Shown here: positions 269-11,835 of the stretch, piece after piece
How positions within the stretch are numbered: the first letter of the stretch is position 1
Layout of the letters: each line of letters opens with the position of its first letter
Source of the DNA: a virus
IMG/VR virus record: IMGVR_UViG_3300045988_078946
DNA length: 11,835 nt
Reading direction: 5' to 3' (one strand)
The notes under the pieces: model-generated
Told to the model about the DNA's origin: nothing
Seen by the model: only the letters and a program-made list of their open reading frames with translations
The model's database searches: none
Position numbers and translations under genes: made by a program

Positions 269-300
269 CGTTAACACTGTTAAACTTTCATAAAAATAAT

Positions 301-378
301 GTTTCACGTGGAACGTTGGTAAATAAATGTTTCACGTGGAACAAAGGGGCAAACAATGAAAACTGTTTCACGTGGAAC
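301..378. promoter_or_regulatory. Cluster of three identical near-palindromic boxes GTTTCACGTGGAAC (candidate operator or origin-protein binding sites)
   Basis: Exact copies at 301-314, 329-342 and 365-378 (centre spacing 28 and 36 bp). Each is preceded by an A-rich tract and (A/C)TG. The core is CACGTG, and the arms are palindromic except for one position (G instead of A) that is the same in all three copies. Confidence 0.7.
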
Positions 379-433
379 AAACAAGTGTTAACAACAGTTA
401 ATTTATTTCTTTAAGACTTTTTAACGAAAATAA

Positions 434-465
434 TTTGGTGGTTTCGCAAAAACGTTGTATCTTTG
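434..465 (+). promoter_or_regulatory. Inward-facing left-arm (early) promoter, Bacteroidota type
   Basis: TTTG at 434-437, a 20-bp spacer, then TATCTTTG at 458-465 (matches the TAnnTTTG -7 element). It lies about 50 nt upstream of the first + strand gene and is repeated in the right ITR and mid-genome with the same architecture. Confidence 0.65.
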
Positions 466-1194: not shown

Positions 1195-1866
1195 ATGGCA
1201 AAGTTAAATCCGATAGGGTTTTCAAAAAGAACGTTTGCAGCAACGGCAAAGATACACGTTGATAAGCAAATATTAGACGCAATAGAATCCCGTGGCTATT
1301 TACGCAAAGAAATCGCCCGTGTGTTTCAACAGGCGAACCGACGCATACAGAATGTGGAAAAATCGGGTTTTGTTTCGCCTGCCGTTGTTGCGTTAAATAA
1401 AGGTGATATTAAAGGATTCACAAAGTTTTCAATGAAACACGATTGGAACGATTTAAAAATTGAATATTCCAAAGCGGTTTCTTTTTTGCAACAACCTACA
1501 TCAACGGCAATTGGTACACGTGAGTATTCAAACCATTTAAAGAAGTCTTACAACTTAGACGATAAAGAATTTAAGTTGATGCAAGACAAATTAATGGGTA
1601 AAATTGCAAGTGTTTCCGATGAAAGATTTTTGGAACAATATTTAATGCAGTACAAAGATTTCACGGGCGAACTAGAACAGGAATCACGGGACGTTAGCGA
1701 CCAAATCGAAGATGATGCGGTTAAAATTGAAAACGCTTTAGATGATGCAATAGAACAAATAGCAAAAGACCCAAATTCAGAGGCTTACGTTAACGGTGTT
1801 AACCATTTCAAAACTGACGAACCTTTGAAAAAGATATTGCAAGAATTTGAAAAATTCGGTTTATAA
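1195..1866 (+). CDS. Candidate terminal protein (TP) for protein-primed replication, 223 aa
   Basis: It lies immediately upstream of the protein-primed DNA polymerase and is translationally coupled to it (TAATG overlap at 1864-1868), as with phi29 genes 3 and 2. It has a basic N-terminal region (ARVFQQANRRIQNVEKSGFV, compare phi29 TP ARLVKNTKAKIARTKKKYGV from memory) and an acidic C-terminal half. The product call is an inference. Confidence 0.6.
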   Translation: MAKLNPIGFSKRTFAATAKIHVDKQILDAIESRGYLRKEIARVFQQANRRIQNVEKSGFVSPAVVALNKGDIKGFTKFSMKHDWNDLKIEYSKAVSFLQQPTSTAIGTREYSNHLKKSYNLDDKEFKLMQDKLMGKIASVSDERFLEQYLMQYKDFTGELEQESRDVSDQIEDDAVKIENALDDAIEQIAKDPNSEAYVNGVNHFKTDEPLKKILQEFEKFGL

Positions 1867-4073
1867 TGAAGAAAATACCCTTTGAACTACATACAGAAGT
1901 TTATACGCCAAAAGATATTGCAAAGGTTTTATCTTTGGCGGTGAACGATAAGAATTTTACAGGAAACAATAAGGGCGAAAAGTTCTTAAACGTTCCTGTA
2001 TCTTTCGATATTGAAACTACATCATTTTACCGTGATGAAGACGGGGAAACATACAGTTACGAACGCTATATGAAATTAGGTGGAAAAGAAACCAAAATGG
2101 AAAAGTGTTCTTTAATGTATGTTTGGCAATTTGGAATAAACGGTTTTTGCATAATTGGGCGTACGTGGGACGAATTTTTGCAAATGTTATCCGAAATAGT
2201 GGATATATTGGAACTTTGCCCAAAGAAACGTATTATTATTTACGTTCACAATTTGGCTTATGAGTTCCAATTTTTCCGTGAGTTGTTGGAATGGGAAAAA
2301 GTTTTCTCTATTGATTTACGCAAACCAATTTACGGAATAACGAAAACAGGTTTAGAGTTCCGATGCAGTTACTTATTATCGGGTTATTCTTTGGCGAAAT
2401 TAGGCGAACAATTACACACATACAAATGTGAAAAGTTAGTTGGCGATTTGGATTATAGTTTGTTACGTCACAGTAAAACCCCGTTGTCACAAAAAGAAAT
2501 TGGTTACTGTCTGAATGATATAAAAGTGGTGATGTGTTACATACAGGAACTATTGGAACGTTACAAAGGAATAACCCGTTTGCCGATTACAAAGACGGGT
2601 TTTGTACGCAAATATTGCCGTTCTGTATGCTTTAAAACAACTGACGAAACAGGCAAAACGATTCCAAACTTTAAATATATTGATAAGATTCATAACTTAA
2701 ATATAACAGGTATGGAAGAATTTGCAATGTTACAACGGGCGTTTTCAGGTGGCTTTACGCACGCCAACGCAAAATACACCGATGAAGTAATTGAGAATGT
2801 AGATAGTTACGATTTTACTAGCAGTTACCCTTATGTTATGGTTTCAGAAAAGTTTCCAATGAGTACGGGCGTAATTGTACCGATAAAGTCAATGAAACAA
2901 TTTGAGTTTATGACTAGCAAATTTTGTTGTGTTTTTGATGTGGAGATAACAAACATATTTGCAAAATCAGAAAACGAAAATCCAATATCGGTTAGTAAAT
3001 GTTTCGTGAAAGAAAACGTTTCCGAGAATAACGGGCGATTGGTTTGCGCAAAGAAAATATGTATGACGATTACCGAAATAGATTACAAAGTGTTTTCACA
3101 GTTTTACACGTGGGAACAAATAAGAATCGGGCGAATGATTTGTTACAGAAAAGAATATTTGCCAACTGAGTTTGTAGAATCTATTTTGCACCTGTATGAG
3201 ATGAAAACAAAACTAAAGGGTGTAAAGGGTAAAGAAGTGGAGTATTTGAATAGCAAAGAAATGCTTAATAGTTGTTACGGTATGTGTGTTACAAATCCGT
3301 TGCGTGATGAAATTTTGTGCGATGGCGAAACGTGGGACGTTGAACACCTTACAGGCGAAAAACAATTAGAAATGCTTAATAAATACAATGATAGTAAAAA
3401 CCGCTTTTTGTTTTACCCGTGGGGTATTTATGTTACCGCCTATGCACGAAGAAACCTGTTTACGGGTATTTCTGAATGTGGGGACGATTACATATATAGT
3501 GATACCGATTCCGTTAAAATTATGAATGGTAATGCACACAAAGACTATTTCAAAGCCTACAACGATTTAGCGCAACAAAAATTACGTGCCGCCTGTAAGT
3601 TTCACAAAATACCCTTTGAAAAGGTTGAACCCGTCACAATAAAGGGAATCTCAAAACCGTTGGGTGTTTGGGATTACGAGGGACGTTACGTCAGGTTTAA
3701 AACTTTAGGCGCAAAACGCTATATGGTGGAAGAAGAAAACGCCCTAACAGTAAACGGCAAAGATTATAATTATTCAATGACCGTTTCGGGCGTTAACAAA
3801 AAATCCGCTATCCCTTATATGTTAGAAACGTTTGGAGAAAGTGGAATCTTTGACGCATTTACAAATTATCTAGATATTCCACCATCGGCAACAGGTAAGA
3901 ATATTCATACATATATTGATTATAAACAAACGGGAACAATAAAAGACTATAGGGGCAACGTTTCAAGTTACGATACGACAACGGGGGTACACTTAGAACC
4001 AACTGGGTACACTTTAAGTCTTTCAGTTCTTTATATAAATTATTTAATGGGAATCAGATTAAAGAAAGAATAA
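1866..4073 (+). CDS. Protein-primed family B DNA polymerase (phi29 gp2-like), 735 aa
   Basis: All canonical motifs are readable. ExoI is FDIETTS, ExoII is VHNLAYEFQF and ExoIII is YCLNDIKVV. Motif A is DFTSSYPYVM, motif B is KEMLNSCYGMCV, motif C is IYSDTDSVK and the KxY motif is GAKRYMV. The genome has ITRs consistent with protein priming. Confidence 0.95.
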   Translation: MKKIPFELHTEVYTPKDIAKVLSLAVNDKNFTGNNKGEKFLNVPVSFDIETTSFYRDEDGETYSYERYMKLGGKETKMEKCSLMYVWQFGINGFCIIGRTWDEFLQMLSEIVDILELCPKKRIIIYVHNLAYEFQFFRELLEWEKVFSIDLRKPIYGITKTGLEFRCSYLLSGYSLAKLGEQLHTYKCEKLVGDLDYSLLRHSKTPLSQKEIGYCLNDIKVVMCYIQELLERYKGITRLPITKTGFVRKYCRSVCFKTTDETGKTIPNFKYIDKIHNLNITGMEEFAMLQRAFSGGFTHANAKYTDEVIENVDSYDFTSSYPYVMVSEKFPMSTGVIVPIKSMKQFEFMTSKFCCVFDVEITNIFAKSENENPISVSKCFVKENVSENNGRLVCAKKICMTITEIDYKVFSQFYTWEQIRIGRMICYRKEYLPTEFVESILHLYEMKTKLKGVKGKEVEYLNSKEMLNSCYGMCVTNPLRDEILCDGETWDVEHLTGEKQLEMLNKYNDSKNRFLFYPWGIYVTAYARRNLFTGISECGDDYIYSDTDSVKIMNGNAHKDYFKAYNDLAQQKLRAACKFHKIPFEKVEPVTIKGISKPLGVWDYEGRYVRFKTLGAKRYMVEEENALTVNGKDYNYSMTVSGVNKKSAIPYMLETFGESGIFDAFTNYLDIPPSATGKNIHTYIDYKQTGTIKDYRGNVSSYDTTTGVHLEPTGYTLSLSVLYINYLMGIRLKKE

Positions 4074-4074
4074 T

Positions 4075-5214
4075 ATGAGACAGAAGAAAGAAAAGGTAGA
4101 AACACCGAAATTTTACACGTTGAATCGCATTTTATCAAAGAATGCCGATTACAATGTAATTTTCGGTGAACGTTCCAACGGTAAGACCTATGCAACGTTA
4201 CTGTATGGAATCAAAGAATATTTGCGCACAGGAAAACAAATGGCTTATATTCGTAGATGGCGTGAAGATTTAAGGGGCAAACGTGCCGAAAGTTTATTCA
4301 GTAATCACGTTGCAAACGGTGTGATACAGGAATTAACAGGCGGTAAGTTTAACGAAGTGTTTTACATTTCGGGTAAATGGTTTCTTTCGTCTTACGACCC
4401 CGAAACCAAAAAACGTGTACCCGATAACACACCGTTCTGTTTCGGGTTTTGTCTTTCAGAACAGGAACACGAAAAATCTAGCAGTTACCCAAACATAACT
4501 ACAATAGTTTTCGACGAGTTCCTAACTAGACGTTACTATTTGCCCGATGAATTTATGTTATATATGAACCTATTGAGTACAATTATCAGACAGAGAAACG
4601 ATGTTAAAGTTTTTATGTTAGGTAATACAGTGAATCAATTTTGCCCGTATTTCTCAGAAATGGGATTGAAACAGGTGCGAATGATGGAACAGGGAACTAT
4701 TGATATTTACCGTTTCGGTGAGCACGGGGCAACGGTTGCAGTAGAATATTGCAGTACGATTGTTAAACATAAGGCTAGCAACAAATACTTTTGTTTTGAC
4801 AATGAAAATTTGCAAATGATTACGGGCGGTAAATGGGAACTTGCAGCATATCCGCACCTACCTGTAAAATACAAACCGAATGACGTGTTATTTGTCTTCT
4901 ATATTCAGTTTAACGAAATTACCTTACAGGGCAACGTAATACAGATTGAGGACAAAGAAAACGGGGTGAATAACTTTATTTATATCCACAACAAAACAAC
5001 CCCGATAAAGGACACAGACAACAGTTTGATATATTCTTTGCAAATGAACGGCAAACCAAACTACAAACGAAAGTTGCTGAGTACTGCAACCTATCTAGAA
5101 TCACAGATAACTAGATATTTTGCAACCGATAAGGTATTTTATCAAAATAACGAAATTGGCGAAATTGTGCGCAATTACTTGATGACAAGTGCAAGAAGTA
5201 ACATTATTACTTAA
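4075..5214 (+). CDS. DNA encapsidation (packaging) ATPase, phi29 gp16-like, 379 aa
   Basis: Walker A is GERSNGKT. YIRRWRED matches phi29 YVRRYKPE. SSSYPNITTIVFDEF (Walker B) matches phi29 SNAYPNVSTIVFDEF, and LGNTVNQFCPYF matches phi29 LSNAVSVVNPYF (phi29 sequence recalled from memory). Confidence 0.9.
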   Translation: MRQKKEKVETPKFYTLNRILSKNADYNVIFGERSNGKTYATLLYGIKEYLRTGKQMAYIRRWREDLRGKRAESLFSNHVANGVIQELTGGKFNEVFYISGKWFLSSYDPETKKRVPDNTPFCFGFCLSEQEHEKSSSYPNITTIVFDEFLTRRYYLPDEFMLYMNLLSTIIRQRNDVKVFMLGNTVNQFCPYFSEMGLKQVRMMEQGTIDIYRFGEHGATVAVEYCSTIVKHKASNKYFCFDNENLQMITGGKWELAAYPHLPVKYKPNDVLFVFYIQFNEITLQGNVIQIEDKENGVNNFIYIHNKTTPIKDTDNSLIYSLQMNGKPNYKRKLLSTATYLESQITRYFATDKVFYQNNEIGEIVRNYLMTSARSNIIT

Positions 5215-5223
5215 TATCTGTTA

Positions 5224-5272
5224 ACGGGGGTTAAAAATGTTTCACGTGAAACACTTTTCCCCCGTTTTATTT
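5224..5272 (+). terminator. Rho-independent terminator of the left (early) operon; its stem contains the CACGTG palindrome
   Basis: ACGGGGG (5224-5230) pairs with CCCCCGT (5259-5265). The inner stem is formed by AAAATGTTTCAC/GTGAAACACTTTT. It is followed by TTTTATTT and sits 10 nt after the ATPase stop. Confidence 0.75.
5238..5253. promoter_or_regulatory. Perfect 16-bp palindrome TGTTTCACGTGAAACA (candidate high-affinity operator for the same factor as the ITR boxes)
   Basis: The sequence is its own reverse complement. It differs from the ITR boxes only at the position that breaks their symmetry (A here, G there). It lies 16 bp upstream of the -33 TTTG of the late promoter. Confidence 0.7.
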
Positions 5273-5301
5273 GGTGATACCAAATAATTTTCCTATCTTT
5301 G
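5270..5301 (+). promoter_or_regulatory. Late (structural operon) promoter, Bacteroidota type
   Basis: TTTG at 5270-5273, a 20-bp spacer, then TATCTTTG at 5294-5301. It shares the TTTGGTG...TATCTTTGCA architecture and spacer length with the two ITR promoters. Confidence 0.65.
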
Positions 5302-5333
5302 CAGCATCAAATAACAAAATTAAAATTTGCTAT

Positions 5334-5528
5334 ATGGACGTAAACGCAATTATATCATTAATTAGTAACGTTGGTTTTCCTGTTGCGGTTTGTGTCGCCC
5401 TTTTCTTCTATATGGAGAAACAGAACGAACGCCATCAAAACGAAACCGACAAGTTAAATGAAACCGTACAAAGTAACACTAAAGTGTTGACAGAACTTTG
5501 TACATTAATTAAAACTCTTGTTAAATAA
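5334..5528 (+). CDS. Small single-TM membrane protein, YvrJ-like, 64 aa; holin candidate
   Basis: Translation from ATG 5334 gives MDVNAIISLISNVGFPVAVCVALFFYMEKQNE..., one hydrophobic helix followed by a charged helical tail. The ISNVGFP(V/I)AV motif resembles the YvrJ family (from memory). The track ORF start at 5271 is rejected because it overlaps the promoter. The stop overlaps the portal start (TAATG). Confidence 0.7.
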   Translation: MDVNAIISLISNVGFPVAVCVALFFYMEKQNERHQNETDKLNETVQSNTKVLTELCTLIKTLVK

Positions 5529-6595
5529 TGGAGAAAGAAAACTTATATAATAGGTATCAAACAGAAGTTAAAAACAAAGATTCTGCATTATTCACATTTA
5601 TGCAACGTGTTCTTTGTATGACTTCAAAGATGTTTGAGTACACGGGTACACCCGAAACAATGCCCCCTGTAGAACTTGAAAAGATTCTGCAAACATCGGG
5701 TAACGTTGGTATCGCAAAAGTAAACGGGGGACTGTATGCTTTACAGGGTACACGGGGCGGTGAATGTGATGCGTATTATCACGGCAAAGATTACGTGGTT
5801 GCGAACCCGTGGTTAAATTTGAACAAAACGTTTAAAATCGATTCCGATATTGTCATTATCAACAATACACCGTTTGCAGATTCACTTTTGCCAATAATCG
5901 GCAAATATGGTGTACTTTACACCGATGCGACAATAACACTTAATTTGGCTAGCATTTTAACACGTATCACTATGTTAATTTCTGCTAGTGACGATAAAAC
6001 CAAACAAAGCGCAGAATCTTTCTTGCAGAAGATTTTAAACGGTGATTTCTCAGTAATCGGTGAAAATGCCTTTTTCAAAGGTGTTAACTTACAAACACCA
6101 CCGACACAGGGAAACCAACAAATAGGGCAATTAATTGAACTTTTGCAGTACTATAAGGCTTCAATGTTCAACGATTTAGGTTTGAATGCAAACTATAATA
6201 TGAAACGTGAACGATTGAACACGCAAGAGGTTTCAATGAATATAGACGCTTTAATGCCGTTCGTTGATTCAATGTTAACAGAACGTGTCGAGGGTGTGAA
6301 ACGTGTTAACGAAATGTTTGGTACGGATATTACGGTAACGTTGGGGTCTAGTTGGAAGATTGAGCACGAAAATTATTTGTCGTTACTCAAAGCCACAGAA
6401 GAGGGACACGAACACACCGAAACGGAAGACGTTGACTCAGTAAAGGAAAACGAAACAGAAGAAACGCAAGAAACAGAAGAAACAGAAACAGAAACAGAAG
6501 AAACAGAAGAAACAGAAGAAACGGAAACAGAAACAGAAGAAAATGAAGAAACAGAAGAAACAGAAGAAAAAGAAGAGAAAGAAGATGAAAATTAA
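5528..6595 (+). CDS. Portal / head-tail connector protein, phi29 gp10-like, 355 aa, with an acidic E/T-repeat C-terminal tail
   Basis: [30 protein letters not shown] matches phi29 gp10 [50 protein letters not shown] matches [36 protein letters not shown] matches CEKINELYGLNVKVKF (phi29 sequence from memory). Confidence 0.9.
   Translation: [355 protein letters not shown]
6446..6592. repeat. Purine-rich coding microsatellite (GAAACA / GAAGAAACA units) at the 3' end of the portal gene
   Basis: gaaacagaagaaacgcaagaaacagaagaaacagaaacagaaacagaagaaacagaagaaacagaagaaacggaaacagaaacagaagaaaatgaagaaacagaagaaacagaagaaaaagaagagaaagaagatgaaaat. It translates as [47 protein letters not shown]. Confidence 0.9.
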
Positions 6596-7173: not shown

Positions 7174-8358
7174 ATGGAAGTAAAGCAAATTTATACGCTT
7201 ATTAATAGCGTTTCATCTGAGGTTTTGGGTAAAACCGATTTGGTACACGAAGACCTCACAGGTATCGTTGATTTGGGTAATGAGGTATTTAATCAGAATG
7301 CCGTTGACAATTACGTTAAATCACTTGTAAACCATATCGGTAAGGTGGTTTTCGTGAACCGTCCATATTCGGGTAAAGTTCCATCTATCCTTATGGATGC
7401 GTGGGAATTTGGTAGCGTATTGGAGAAAATCAGCGCAGATGTTCCACAGGCTGAAGAAAACGATACCTGGAATCTCACAGACGGTAAAGAGTACAAACAG
7501 GACGTGTTCCACAAACCAACGGTTTCTGCTAAGTTCTTCAACTCAAAGGTGACTTTTGAAGTTCCTGTATCTATCACAGAAAGACAGGTAAAGGAATCTT
7601 TCAGCAGCTCAGAACAATTGAACGGTTTCCTGTCAATGATTTATTCAGCAGTTGAAAAGTCAATGACTATCAAGACCGATGCGCTTGTTATGCGTACTAT
7701 TAACAATATGATTGCGGAAACTTTGGACGCAGACAAGACATCTTTTGGTTTCGTACCGTCAACACACGAAAAAGTTGACTATGCGAGTGCATCAACAGTT
7801 CGTTGTGTGAACCTGTTGAAACTTTACAACGAAAAGACGGGTGCGGCTTTGACTGCAAACGTAGCAGTAACAACCCCAGACTTTATTCGTTTCGCTGCAT
7901 ATATGATGGGTTTGTATGCAGACAGATTGCAGACAATTTCAACCCTGTTTAACGTTGGCGGTAAGGAACGTTTCACACCGAAAGACGTTTTGCATACCGT
8001 TCTGTTGTCCGATTTCGCAACAGCAGCAAAGACATACCTATATGCCGACACGTTCCATAATGAGAACGTTTTGTTACCACAGGCGGAAACCGTGGCAAGT
8101 TGGCAGGCAACGGGCAAAGATTACGCTTTTGACAACGTTTCAAAGATTGATGTAAAATCTGCTAGCGGTGCAAACGTTTCCATCGGTGGCGTATTGGGTG
8201 TTATGTTTGACCGTGACGCTTTAGGTGTTACCAATTTGGATAAGCGAGTAACGACCAACTACAACGCCAAAGCAGAATTTTTCAACAATTACTTCAAATT
8301 CGATGCCGGCTACTTCAACGACACAAACGAAAACTTTGTTGTGTTCTTTGTCGCCTAA
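7174..8358 (+). CDS. Major capsid protein, phi29 gp8-like (HK97 fold), 394 aa
   Basis: Its N-terminal region AVDNYVKSLVNHIGKVVFVNRP...GSVLEKISADV parallels phi29 gp8 [21 protein letters not shown]...GRTIEEIYTDI (from memory). It is the largest late ORF after the portal and is followed by a strong terminator, as is typical of highly expressed capsid genes. Confidence 0.85.
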   Translation: MEVKQIYTLINSVSSEVLGKTDLVHEDLTGIVDLGNEVFNQNAVDNYVKSLVNHIGKVVFVNRPYSGKVPSILMDAWEFGSVLEKISADVPQAEENDTWNLTDGKEYKQDVFHKPTVSAKFFNSKVTFEVPVSITERQVKESFSSSEQLNGFLSMIYSAVEKSMTIKTDALVMRTINNMIAETLDADKTSFGFVPSTHEKVDYASASTVRCVNLLKLYNEKTGAALTANVAVTTPDFIRFAAYMMGLYADRLQTISTLFNVGGKERFTPKDVLHTVLLSDFATAAKTYLYADTFHNENVLLPQAETVASWQATGKDYAFDNVSKIDVKSASGANVSIGGVLGVMFDRDALGVTNLDKRVTTNYNAKAEFFNNYFKFDAGYFNDTNENFVVFFVA

Positions 8359-10413: not shown

Positions 10414-10420
10414 AAGAAAT

Positions 10421-10442
10421 AGGCGGTAAATTGTTACCGCCT
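10421..10442. terminator. Bidirectional rho-independent terminator between the convergent late and right-arm operons
   Basis: AGGCGGTAA (10421-10429) pairs with TTACCGCCT (10434-10442) around a 4-nt loop. The + strand has T-rich GTTTTCTTATTTTTT downstream, and the - strand transcript has T-rich ATTTCTTTT downstream. Confidence 0.8.
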
Positions 10443-10448
10443 GTTTTC

Positions 10449-11370: not shown

Positions 11371-11402
11371 CAAAGATATAACGTTTTTGCGAAACCACCA
11401 AA
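11371..11402 (-). promoter_or_regulatory. Inward-facing right-arm promoter (ITR copy of the left early promoter)
   Basis: On the - strand: TTTG (11399-11402), a 20-bp spacer, then TATCTTTG (11371-11378). It differs from the left copy only at the base just 5' of the -7 element (11379). Confidence 0.65.
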
Positions 11403-11457
11403 TTATTTTCGTTAAAAAGTCTTAAAGAAATAAATTAACTGTTGTTAACACTTGTTT

Positions 11458-11535
11458 GTTCCACGTGAAACAGTTTTCATTGTTTGCCCCTTTGTTCCAC
11501 GTGAAACATTTATTTACCAACGTTCCACGTGAAAC
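11458..11535. promoter_or_regulatory. Mirror cluster of three GTTCCACGTGAAAC boxes in the right ITR
   Basis: Exact copies at 11458-11471, 11494-11507 and 11522-11535, which are the reverse complements of the left ITR boxes. Confidence 0.7.
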
Positions 11536-11567
11536 ATTATTTTTATGAAAGTTTAACAGTGTTAACG

Positions 11568-11835
11568 GTGTGTTAAATGTGTTAAAGAATGGTAAATGCG
11601 GCACAGAGCAAAAAGCGTGCCAAAGTGTGTTATGAAGTGTTAAATATGTTAAAGAATGGTAAATGCGGCACAGAGCAAAAAGCGTGCCAAAGTGTGTTAT
11701 GAAGTGTTAAATATGTTAAAGAATGGTAAATGCGGCACAGAGCAAAAAGCGTGCCAAAGTGTGTTATGAAGTGTTAAATATGTTAAAGAATGGTAAATGC
11801 GGCACAGAGCAAAAAGCGTGCCAAAGTGTGTTATG
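11568..11835. repeat. Tandem array of four 67-bp direct repeats inside the right ITR (mirror of 1-268)
   Basis: Reverse complement of the left array, read directly in lines 11581-11835. Confidence 0.95.

Follow-up and report, generated by a model that had tools for sequence, protein, structure and literature searches.

Chromosomal parS sites on virulent phages are known from the Bacillus phages phi29 and Nf, where they are connected with spore entrapment. Phage phi29 has been reported to contain five parS sites, through which the host protein Spo0J helps to trap the phage genome in the prespore. Chromosomal parS sites, which are frequently found within coding regions, follow the consensus TGTTNCACGTGAAACA (PMC7022226, PMC10197239), described in a review as the consensus in most bacterial chromosomes (PMC7022226). 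A Hi-C study of the gut microbiota searched for parS with the sequence TGTTTCACGTGAAACA and reported ParABS together with 1-10 parS sites in 12 of 12 OMM12 gut genomes, including that of Bacteroides caecimuris (PMC10197239). Our literature search yielded no report of parS in Astrithrvirus-like, Bacteroidales or gut phages. Here, we describe parS sites in the IMG/VR record IMGVR_UViG_3300045988_078946 (hereafter the window, that is, the whole stretch of 11,835 nucleotides). The window is a complete linear genome of a phi29/Astrithrvirus-like phage of 11,835 base pairs (bp) with perfect inverted terminal repeats (ITRs) of 467 bp. We focus on the junction at positions 5215-5333 between the packaging ATPase gene and the downstream morphogenesis/lysis operon, where a terminator-type hairpin, a parS palindrome within it and a putative promoter are found together.

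The initial annotation of this region described a perfect 16-bp CACGTG palindrome in the upper stem of an intergenic hairpin. This palindrome is indeed exact and located at 5238-5253 (no strand assigned). Its sequence TGTTTCACGTGAAACA corresponds to the ParB/Spo0J consensus TGTTNCACGTGAAACA with 0 mismatches, and a full-text literature search on the 16-mers returned papers on ParB and parS only. Sites of the CRP/FNR, Rex, LacI and PrfA type were considered and rejected once the exact identity with parS was confirmed in the literature. At the level of RNA the same sequence can form only 6 bp closed by an ACGU loop.

The central site is accompanied by two arrays in the ITRs. The left array comprises three parS sites (300-315, 328-343 and 364-379; 300..379, no strand assigned) and precedes the left terminal promoter by approximately 100-165 bp, and the right array mirrors it (11457-11472, 11493-11508 and 11521-11536; 11457..11536, likewise unstranded). 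All seven sites show 0-1 mismatch to TGTTNCACGTGAAACA, whereas shuffled versions of the window contain on average 0.03 matches at up to 2 mismatches; for the 16-mer family as a whole we counted 8 matches at up to 3 mismatches versus 0.20 expected. Moreover, all seven sites are located upstream of promoters. An exact scan of IMG/VR for the 16-mer returned at least 120 stretches, a number that is uninformative about enrichment. As a positive control we scanned the phi29 genome, which contains the sequence TGTTTCACGTGGAACA, identical to the ITR copies of the window, at positions 10445, 15903, 17243 and 18760 and in addition one degenerate site. The four copies and the degenerate site fit the five published parS sites of phi29. 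Judged by its sequence, the palindrome at 5238-5253 is thus most likely a host-type ParB site rather than a demonstrated operator of a class-I activator. Since the motif corresponds exactly to the pan-bacterial parS and since phi29 and Spo0J provide a precedent, the ParB protein of the host is most likely the ligand of the phage sites.

The palindrome is embedded in a hairpin on the plus strand (5223-5266), which begins 9 nucleotides past the TAA stop codon of the ATPase open reading frame (ORF; 5212-5214). The hairpin, AACGGGGG-TT-AAAA-A-TGTTTC[ACGT]GAAACA-C-TTTT-CCCCCGTT, is a stable stem-loop based on G+C pairs and contains 18 pairs in three stacked helices, namely an outer G5/C5 stem, an A4/U4 helix and the upper stem provided by parS. 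Its calculated free energy is -20.6 kcal/mol versus -11.2 +/- 2.8 kcal/mol in shuffled sequences (z = -3.3), and a fold including a small second hairpin reaches -31.3 kcal/mol (z = -3.9). Directly 3' of the stem follows the U-tract UUUUAUUU (5265-5272, plus strand; TTTTATTT in the DNA), which overlaps the -33 element of the promoter. The hairpin is absent from the output of a simple terminator scanner because its bulges lie outside the pattern of the tool.

Next, we aligned the intergenic regions of close relatives with an ATPase identity of 91-99%, which comprise 82 distinct versions. Many relatives originate from the single metagenome 3300045988, and sequencing errors in its contigs may inflate the number of singleton variants. 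Across this set, 95% of the pair cells of the hairpin are paired. In the outer G5/C5 stem, three pairs are changed on both sides (31 cells versus 12.6 +/- 2.9 in shuffles), for instance from ACGGGGG/CCCCCGT to ACAGGGG/CCCCTGT in approximately 20 sequences. In addition, several more distant lineages (L090/L091, L085/L086 and L096) have hairpins of unrelated sequence at the same spot, again followed by T-tracts. Structure and covariation thus support a Rho-independent terminator that closes the left operon. The initial annotation, which had placed a long terminator hairpin with a T-tract here, is borne out in this respect, with the compensatory changes in the outer stem backing the terminator reading.

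The minimum-energy fold also contains a second, small inverted repeat, TTATTTGGT-GAT-ACCAAATAA (5267-5287, plus strand), which overlaps the -33 element. It shows one-sided changes only and is lost in sequences of the L037/L050/L088 type; its significance is uncertain. A search of the window against Rfam yielded nothing relevant, with neither a packaging RNA (pRNA) nor another known RNA family in the junction. A pRNA-like role of a 58-nucleotide 3' hairpin was dropped, as Rfam gave no pRNA match. Two further terminator-like hairpins of similar stability are located at 1128-1166 and 10416-10447. The former shares the ACGGGGG/CCCCCGU base of its stem with the hairpin at 5223-5266. This hairpin (-23 kcal/mol, z = -4.6) occupies 1128-1175 together with UUUUUGUUU, separates the SSB-like gene (734-1099) from that of the terminal protein and resembles the internal terminator of phi29 that is thought to raise the expression of p5 and p6.

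Bacteroidetes sigma-A promoters consist of a -33 element TTTG and a -7 element TAnnTTTG, which are spaced approximately 19-21 nucleotides apart. A pattern search identified a promoter of this type at 5270-5301 (plus strand), with the -33 TTTG at 5270-5273, a spacer of 20 nucleotides and the -7 element TATCTTTG at 5294-5301. The pattern TTTG-N18-22-TAnnTTTG occurs four times in the window versus 1.03 times expected. In line with the initial annotation, the -33 TTTG begins within the T-tract, 4-5 nucleotides past the hairpin stem. The promoter is strongly conserved. Among the 82 relatives, column identity amounts to 98% for the T-tract and the -33 element, 94% for the -7 box and 78% for the spacer, the length of which is 20 nucleotides in 82 of 82 cases. 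Pattern search and repeat comparison furthermore revealed paralogous promoters at both ends of the genome, on the left TTTGGTG...TATCTTTGCA (434-465, plus strand) and on the right its mirror copy within the ITR (11371-11402, minus strand). The promoter at 5270 is approximately 70% similar to the ITR promoter region and has the core TTTGGTG...TATCTTTGCA in common with both terminal promoters. Motif and conservation support the assignment of 5270-5301 as a putative promoter for the holin, connector, capsid and tail genes. Given the core that it shares with the two ITR promoters, it probably needs no phage-encoded activator. Under the assumption that transcription starts approximately 7 nucleotides past the -7 box, the palindrome centre (5245.5) would be positioned at about -62, close to the distance of roughly 60 bp that had been proposed earlier on an assumed start.

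The parS helix behaves differently from the outer stem in that no double-sided change was observed across the 82 relatives. The changes are one-sided, occur mostly at the 'N' of the consensus and are confined to those tolerated by the consensus or compatible with G-U pairing, the columns being 96% identical. A central site with 0-1 mismatch is retained in 74 of the 82 distinct intergenic regions. Covariation of the outer stem together with conservation of parS and of the -33/-7 elements as sequence is the pattern expected under three constraints, namely base pairing, a protein-binding sequence and a promoter. The earlier proposal of a double duty is supported in that one stretch serves both as an RNA stem and as a sequence-specific DNA site.

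Outside this close group, the position of the sites varies considerably. As a rule, relatives possess ITR arrays, with 1-5 parS sites per end, and distant relatives have 2-15 sites per contig, some of them within coding regions. In L085/L086 (86% ATPase identity) the central copy has a 2-bp insertion in its core, TGTTTCA-TGCG-TGAAACA, which keeps the RNA stem and alters the spacing of the half-sites, and the ITR copies are still canonical. In L096 (65%) the half-sites are approximately 18 nucleotides apart and form a 13-bp terminator stem, and each ITR contains four canonical sites. In L094 (67%) the -33/-7 spacer is taken up by a parS-like site (about -25), L095 (67%) has two sites at about -61.5 and -28.5, the latter overlapping the -33 element, and in L092 (75%) two adjacent sites are located downstream of the -7 box. 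L090/L091 (79%) possess a terminator without parS, with ITR sites kept in L091, and L083/L084 (83%) show neither the hairpin nor any parS. The central site is likewise absent in L081. The proteobacterial astrithrviruses Acinetobacter Phanie (L103), Salmonella astrithr (L104) and Vibrio K58 g2 (L105) have no parS anywhere in their genomes, and in these phages the small holin-like gene follows that of the ATPase with no intergenic gap. Among relatives with promoters of the sigma-70 type, L097-L099 are devoid of parS and the very distant L102 has two sites. The combined terminator/promoter/parS junction is specific to the gut lineages. The ITR arrays appear to be the most stable location of parS, whereas the central copy is, by its distribution, frequent but dispensable and its placement with respect to the promoter varies.

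In L095, 15 parS sites at up to 2 mismatches are present within 11.8 kb, several of them inside coding regions. In a gene of approximately 148 amino acids, GTT TCA CGT GAA encodes VSRE, and other lineages have different residues at this position. L094 likewise has sites within coding regions, its parS sites including those at 2440, 7452 and 9574. In L071 (1120-1226) the palindrome was lost via a 10-nucleotide deletion that left the outer stem, the T-tract and the promoter intact, and which is either a real deletion or an assembly error. Many close relatives (L019, L022, L027, L028 and others) harbour an extra pair of sites containing CACGTG, TGTTTCACGTGATGTT and TTTTACACGTGTACCG, in the right arm; the two are separated by 21 bp and located approximately 200 nucleotides inside the right ITR parS sites, and the window is without this pair.

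Taken together, we consider it probable, short of confident, that the junction of the two transcription units combines a terminator, a host-type promoter and a parS site for the host's ParB. At the RNA level, the hairpin at 5223-5266 with its U-tract would end the left operon, and 4-5 nucleotides later the sigma-A factor of the host would restart transcription from the -33 TTTG and the -7 TATCTTTG into the holin, connector, capsid and tail genes. At the level of double-stranded DNA, the central 16 bp and the six ITR sites would load the ParB of the host as a clamp dependent on cytidine triphosphate, as the phi29 sites do with Bacillus Spo0J. Such loading would tie the phage genome to the partition and condensation machinery of the host, with segregation or persistence of unintegrated genomes, silencing of promoters or titration of host ParB as possible outcomes. 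That parS is housed in the hairpin may be explained by the fact that, in a genome with a coding share of more than 93%, a terminator stem can accommodate palindromes of any sequence without using up coding space.

Several observations weigh against this reading. The complete absence of parS in L083, the absence of the central copy in L091, its expansion in L085 and its split in L096 imply that the central copy is dispensable or is not always a ParB site. A position-specific regulatory role would likewise be compatible with the recurrence of the centre at about -62 in the window clade and at about -61.5 in L095, a distant relative. According to a review, the transcription of neighbouring genes is usually little affected by chromosomal ParB (PMC7022226), which makes any regulatory consequence speculative. 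Lastly, the promoters are of the Bacteroidetes type, yet the closest relatives binned with metagenome-assembled genomes (MAGs) fall into Gastranaerophilales bins.

As a separate observation on these bins, the three closest relatives from genome collections (L087, L088 and L089) are whole-phage contigs in MAG bins of Candidatus Gastranaerophilales/Melainabacteria, and more distant relatives are found in Prevotella, Christensenellaceae and other bins. MAG-based host assignment is inconsistent and was not used as evidence.

The explanation of the palindrome given by the initial annotation, an operator from which a phage-encoded protein activates the late promoter in the manner of class-I activators or of phi29 p4, is in our view very unlikely. 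Under this scheme the same protein would act on the early promoters via the ITR sites, in keeping with the fact that the motif is common to the central and to both terminal promoter regions. Likewise, the spacing of about -61.5/-62.5 in the window clade and in distant L095 would suit an activator, and several small ORFs are without an assigned function. However, the motif is exactly the chromosomal parS of hosts, repeated three times per ITR and identical to the Spo0J sites of phi29. Searches of Pfam, PHROGs and PDB sequences revealed no match to ParB, phi29 p4, a helix-turn-helix or a ribbon-helix-helix protein in any ORF of the window, and a comparison of the presence and absence of small ORFs across lineages yielded no accessory gene that tracks the parS motif. 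Furthermore, the upstream element whose absence would indicate dependence on an activator is present at the 5270 promoter as a consensus -33 TTTG, so that with its full -33/-7 consensus this promoter resembles the terminal ones and gives no sign of activator dependence. Finally, the position of the site appears not to be conserved across lineages: relatives have it close to -62, within the core promoter (about -25/-28), past the -7 box, in split form or not at all, and in part inside genes. The lack of a candidate gene with a matching distribution across genomes argues likewise against an unannotated small phage protein with ParB-like specificity that would arrange the ends of the genome for protein-primed replication in the manner of p6 in phi29. 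The location of the arrays next to the replication origins, the ITR being the most conserved site location, and the dual role of p6 in replication and transcription speak for such a protein. Nevertheless, we regard it as highly improbable, because an exact pan-bacterial parS over lineages with differing accessory genes is hard to explain without a host protein, and phi29 employs host Spo0J for the same sequence. Least probable of all, in our estimation, is that the central palindrome functions as an RNA stem only, its identity with parS being a by-product, for example of an ITR copy introduced by recombination. The 2-bp insertion in L085/L086 and the split of approximately 18 nucleotides in L096 keep or improve the hairpin, L071 lost the palindrome and kept the outer stem, and the hairpin of L090/L091 is free of parS, all of which would be compatible with a purely structural role. 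On the other hand, the 16 bp are conserved as sequence in the window clade without the compensatory drift seen in the outer stem, the varying position is the 'N' of the consensus, and an intact parS is found in independent lineages at various places of this intergenic region.

A further alternative retains host ParB as the ligand and assigns to it mainly the role of a transcriptional regulator or silencer, which would repress the morphogenesis/lysis promoter and the terminal promoters and thereby establish a dormant or carrier state coupled to the cell cycle of the host. The palindrome would then be an operator, though a repressive one for a host protein, comparable to KorB or to Pseudomonas aeruginosa ParB at an intergenic parS. 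We judge this to be rather unlikely. Whenever a central parS is present it lies within approximately 65 bp of the presumed promoter start; however, the intergenic region measures only about 110 nucleotides, so that any site there is necessarily near the promoter. The site within the -33/-7 spacer of L094, the copy over the -33 element of L095 (about -28) and the pair downstream of the -7 box in L092 would be well placed for repression, and all seven sites of the window are upstream of promoters, but the site of the window clade (-62) and the ITR sites (-100 to -165) are clear of the core promoters. According to the review cited above, ParB is able to repress from intergenic parS, while loss of Spo0J in B. 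subtilis leaves the expression of parS-adjacent genes unchanged (PMC7022226). Moreover, several lineages are without the central site. With regard to the preferred reading, in which host ParB is loaded at all parS sites, an effect on the 5270 promoter from about -62 is possible. Repression would be the likelier direction in those relatives whose parS is placed inside the core promoter or downstream of it, and silencing is more plausible for sites that overlap it, such as those of L094 and L095.

As a tentative extension that we put forward with considerable reserve, parS arrays in tiny, apparently strictly lytic phages of the human gut (seven sites here, 15 or more in relatives) might recruit ParB, and thereby ParA and SMC, so that unintegrated linear genomes are passed on to daughter cells in a partition-based carrier state in non-sporulating hosts, possibly accompanied by silencing, and the parS site in the terminator might link occupancy by ParB to read-through and to renewed initiation at the morphogenesis/lysis operon. 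A conserved and multiplied 16-mer in an abundant gut lineage (over 7,000 homologues of its ATPase in public data) with hosts that probably form no spores points to a wider strategy of small lytic phages plugging into the ParABS system of the host. If true, this would be a concrete and testable way in which non-temperate gut phages could attain their long-debated persistence or carrier state. The arrangement also illustrates genome economy, with a protein-binding palindrome in the terminator stem and the next promoter 4-5 nucleotides away. Natural controls exist in lineages that kept the hairpin with a broken parS (L085, L096, L071) and in others with parS elsewhere (L092, L094, L095). Chromosomal parS sites on a virulent phage are not new in themselves. 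What appears to be new here, to judge from our literature search, are the parS arrays inside ITRs, the parS site embedded in a terminator stem beside a promoter, the 15 sites in one relative and a host that probably does not form spores.

The arrangement of the remaining genes is in accordance with the kinship to phi29. From the left ITR promoter the replication/ATPase operon is followed by the junction at 5215-5333 and by the morphogenesis/lysis operon, which extends to a bidirectional terminator at 10416-10447; the latter also closes a short leftward operon that is run from the right ITR promoter. The left operon encodes a small protein, the SSB-like protein, the terminal protein, a protein-primed family-B DNA polymerase (1866-4073; Pfam) and, as its last gene, a phi29 gp16-like packaging ATPase (4075-5214, plus strand; Pfam PF05894, E = 1.5e-23). 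The first gene of the downstream operon (5325-5528, plus strand) encodes a holin-like small membrane protein (PHROG 4898 holin, E = 1.9e-8), which matches Pfam Holin_BhlA weakly and under the Pfam cutoff. It is followed by a phi29-type connector (5528-6595) and a major capsid protein likewise of the phi29 type (7174-8358). The minus strand encodes an M15 peptidase. The closest cultured relatives belong to the Astrithrvirus group with genomes of about 11.5 kb, and a protein-level search yielded approximately 51-54% ATPase identity, the matched members being Salmonella astrithr and Astrid, Acinetobacter Phanie and Pectobacterium DU_PP_III. Identity to the ATPases of Bacillus phi29-like phages such as Nf is approximately 29-32% across about half of the protein. 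A megablast search of the window against GenBank phages gave no match, and relatives surfaced only at the protein level; in IMG/VR we counted 318 relatives. A review of phi29-like phages describes a small-genome branch and a suspected Bacteroidales-infecting member.

Each genome tip contains four tandem 67-bp repeat units (1-266 and 11570-11835). Every unit holds TGGCACGCTTTTTGC, which matches the sigma-54 -24/-12 consensus TGGCAC-N5-TTGC perfectly, reads inward (8 matches versus 0.02 expected) and is also part of an inverted repeat TGGCAC...GTGCC. This motif is likewise present at the termini of L083, L085/L086 and L095. Its possible roles are those of an element recognised at the origin or by the terminal protein, and of an RpoN promoter.

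Compared with known systems, the locus shares distinct features with each of several. The linear phages N15 and the tectiviral GIL01/pBClin15 are similar in that a linear phage genome possibly requires segregation without integration. N15 encodes its own partition proteins, whereas the window phage encodes no partition, repressor or lysogeny genes. As in KorB and other ParB-type repressors, a palindrome of the parS type is found near promoters, in L094, L095 and L092 within or downstream of the core promoter; in contrast to these repressors, the binder would here come from the host chromosome and not from the element itself. The p4/A3 switch of phi29 is likewise a compact control region, divergent or early-late, in which the promoter of structural genes has a protein site upstream. 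However, the window is without a p4 homologue, its site is a parS and not the inverted repeat of p4, and while A3 is without a -35 element, the promoter of the window has a consensus upstream (-33) element.

The likeness to chromosomal parS and the ParABS centromere comprises the 16-bp TGTTNCACGTGAAACA palindrome, its clustered copies, the variation at 'N' and, in some genomes, sites inside genes. Unlike the centromere, the site of the window is located on a virus genome without parA or parB and doubles as the stem of an RNA hairpin. Among the compared systems, phi29 itself is likewise a protein-primed podovirus with several chromosomal parS copies of the identical sequence TGTTTCACGTGGAACA and no parB gene of its own. 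In the phi29 stretch 17243-17301, the parS site at 17243 starts right behind the stop codon of gp16, the ATPase gene, and directly precedes the bidirectional terminator TD1, which corresponds to the order of ATPase, parS and terminator in the window. Spore entrapment is presumably not the purpose here, as the host, to judge from the Bacteroidetes-type promoters, is not a known spore former. The window genome is approximately 40% smaller than that of phi29 and belongs to an Astrithrvirus-like branch; relatives reach 15 sites in about 12 kb. In contrast to phi29, its parS sites are arranged in arrays within long ITRs, together with one site within a terminator stem beside a promoter.

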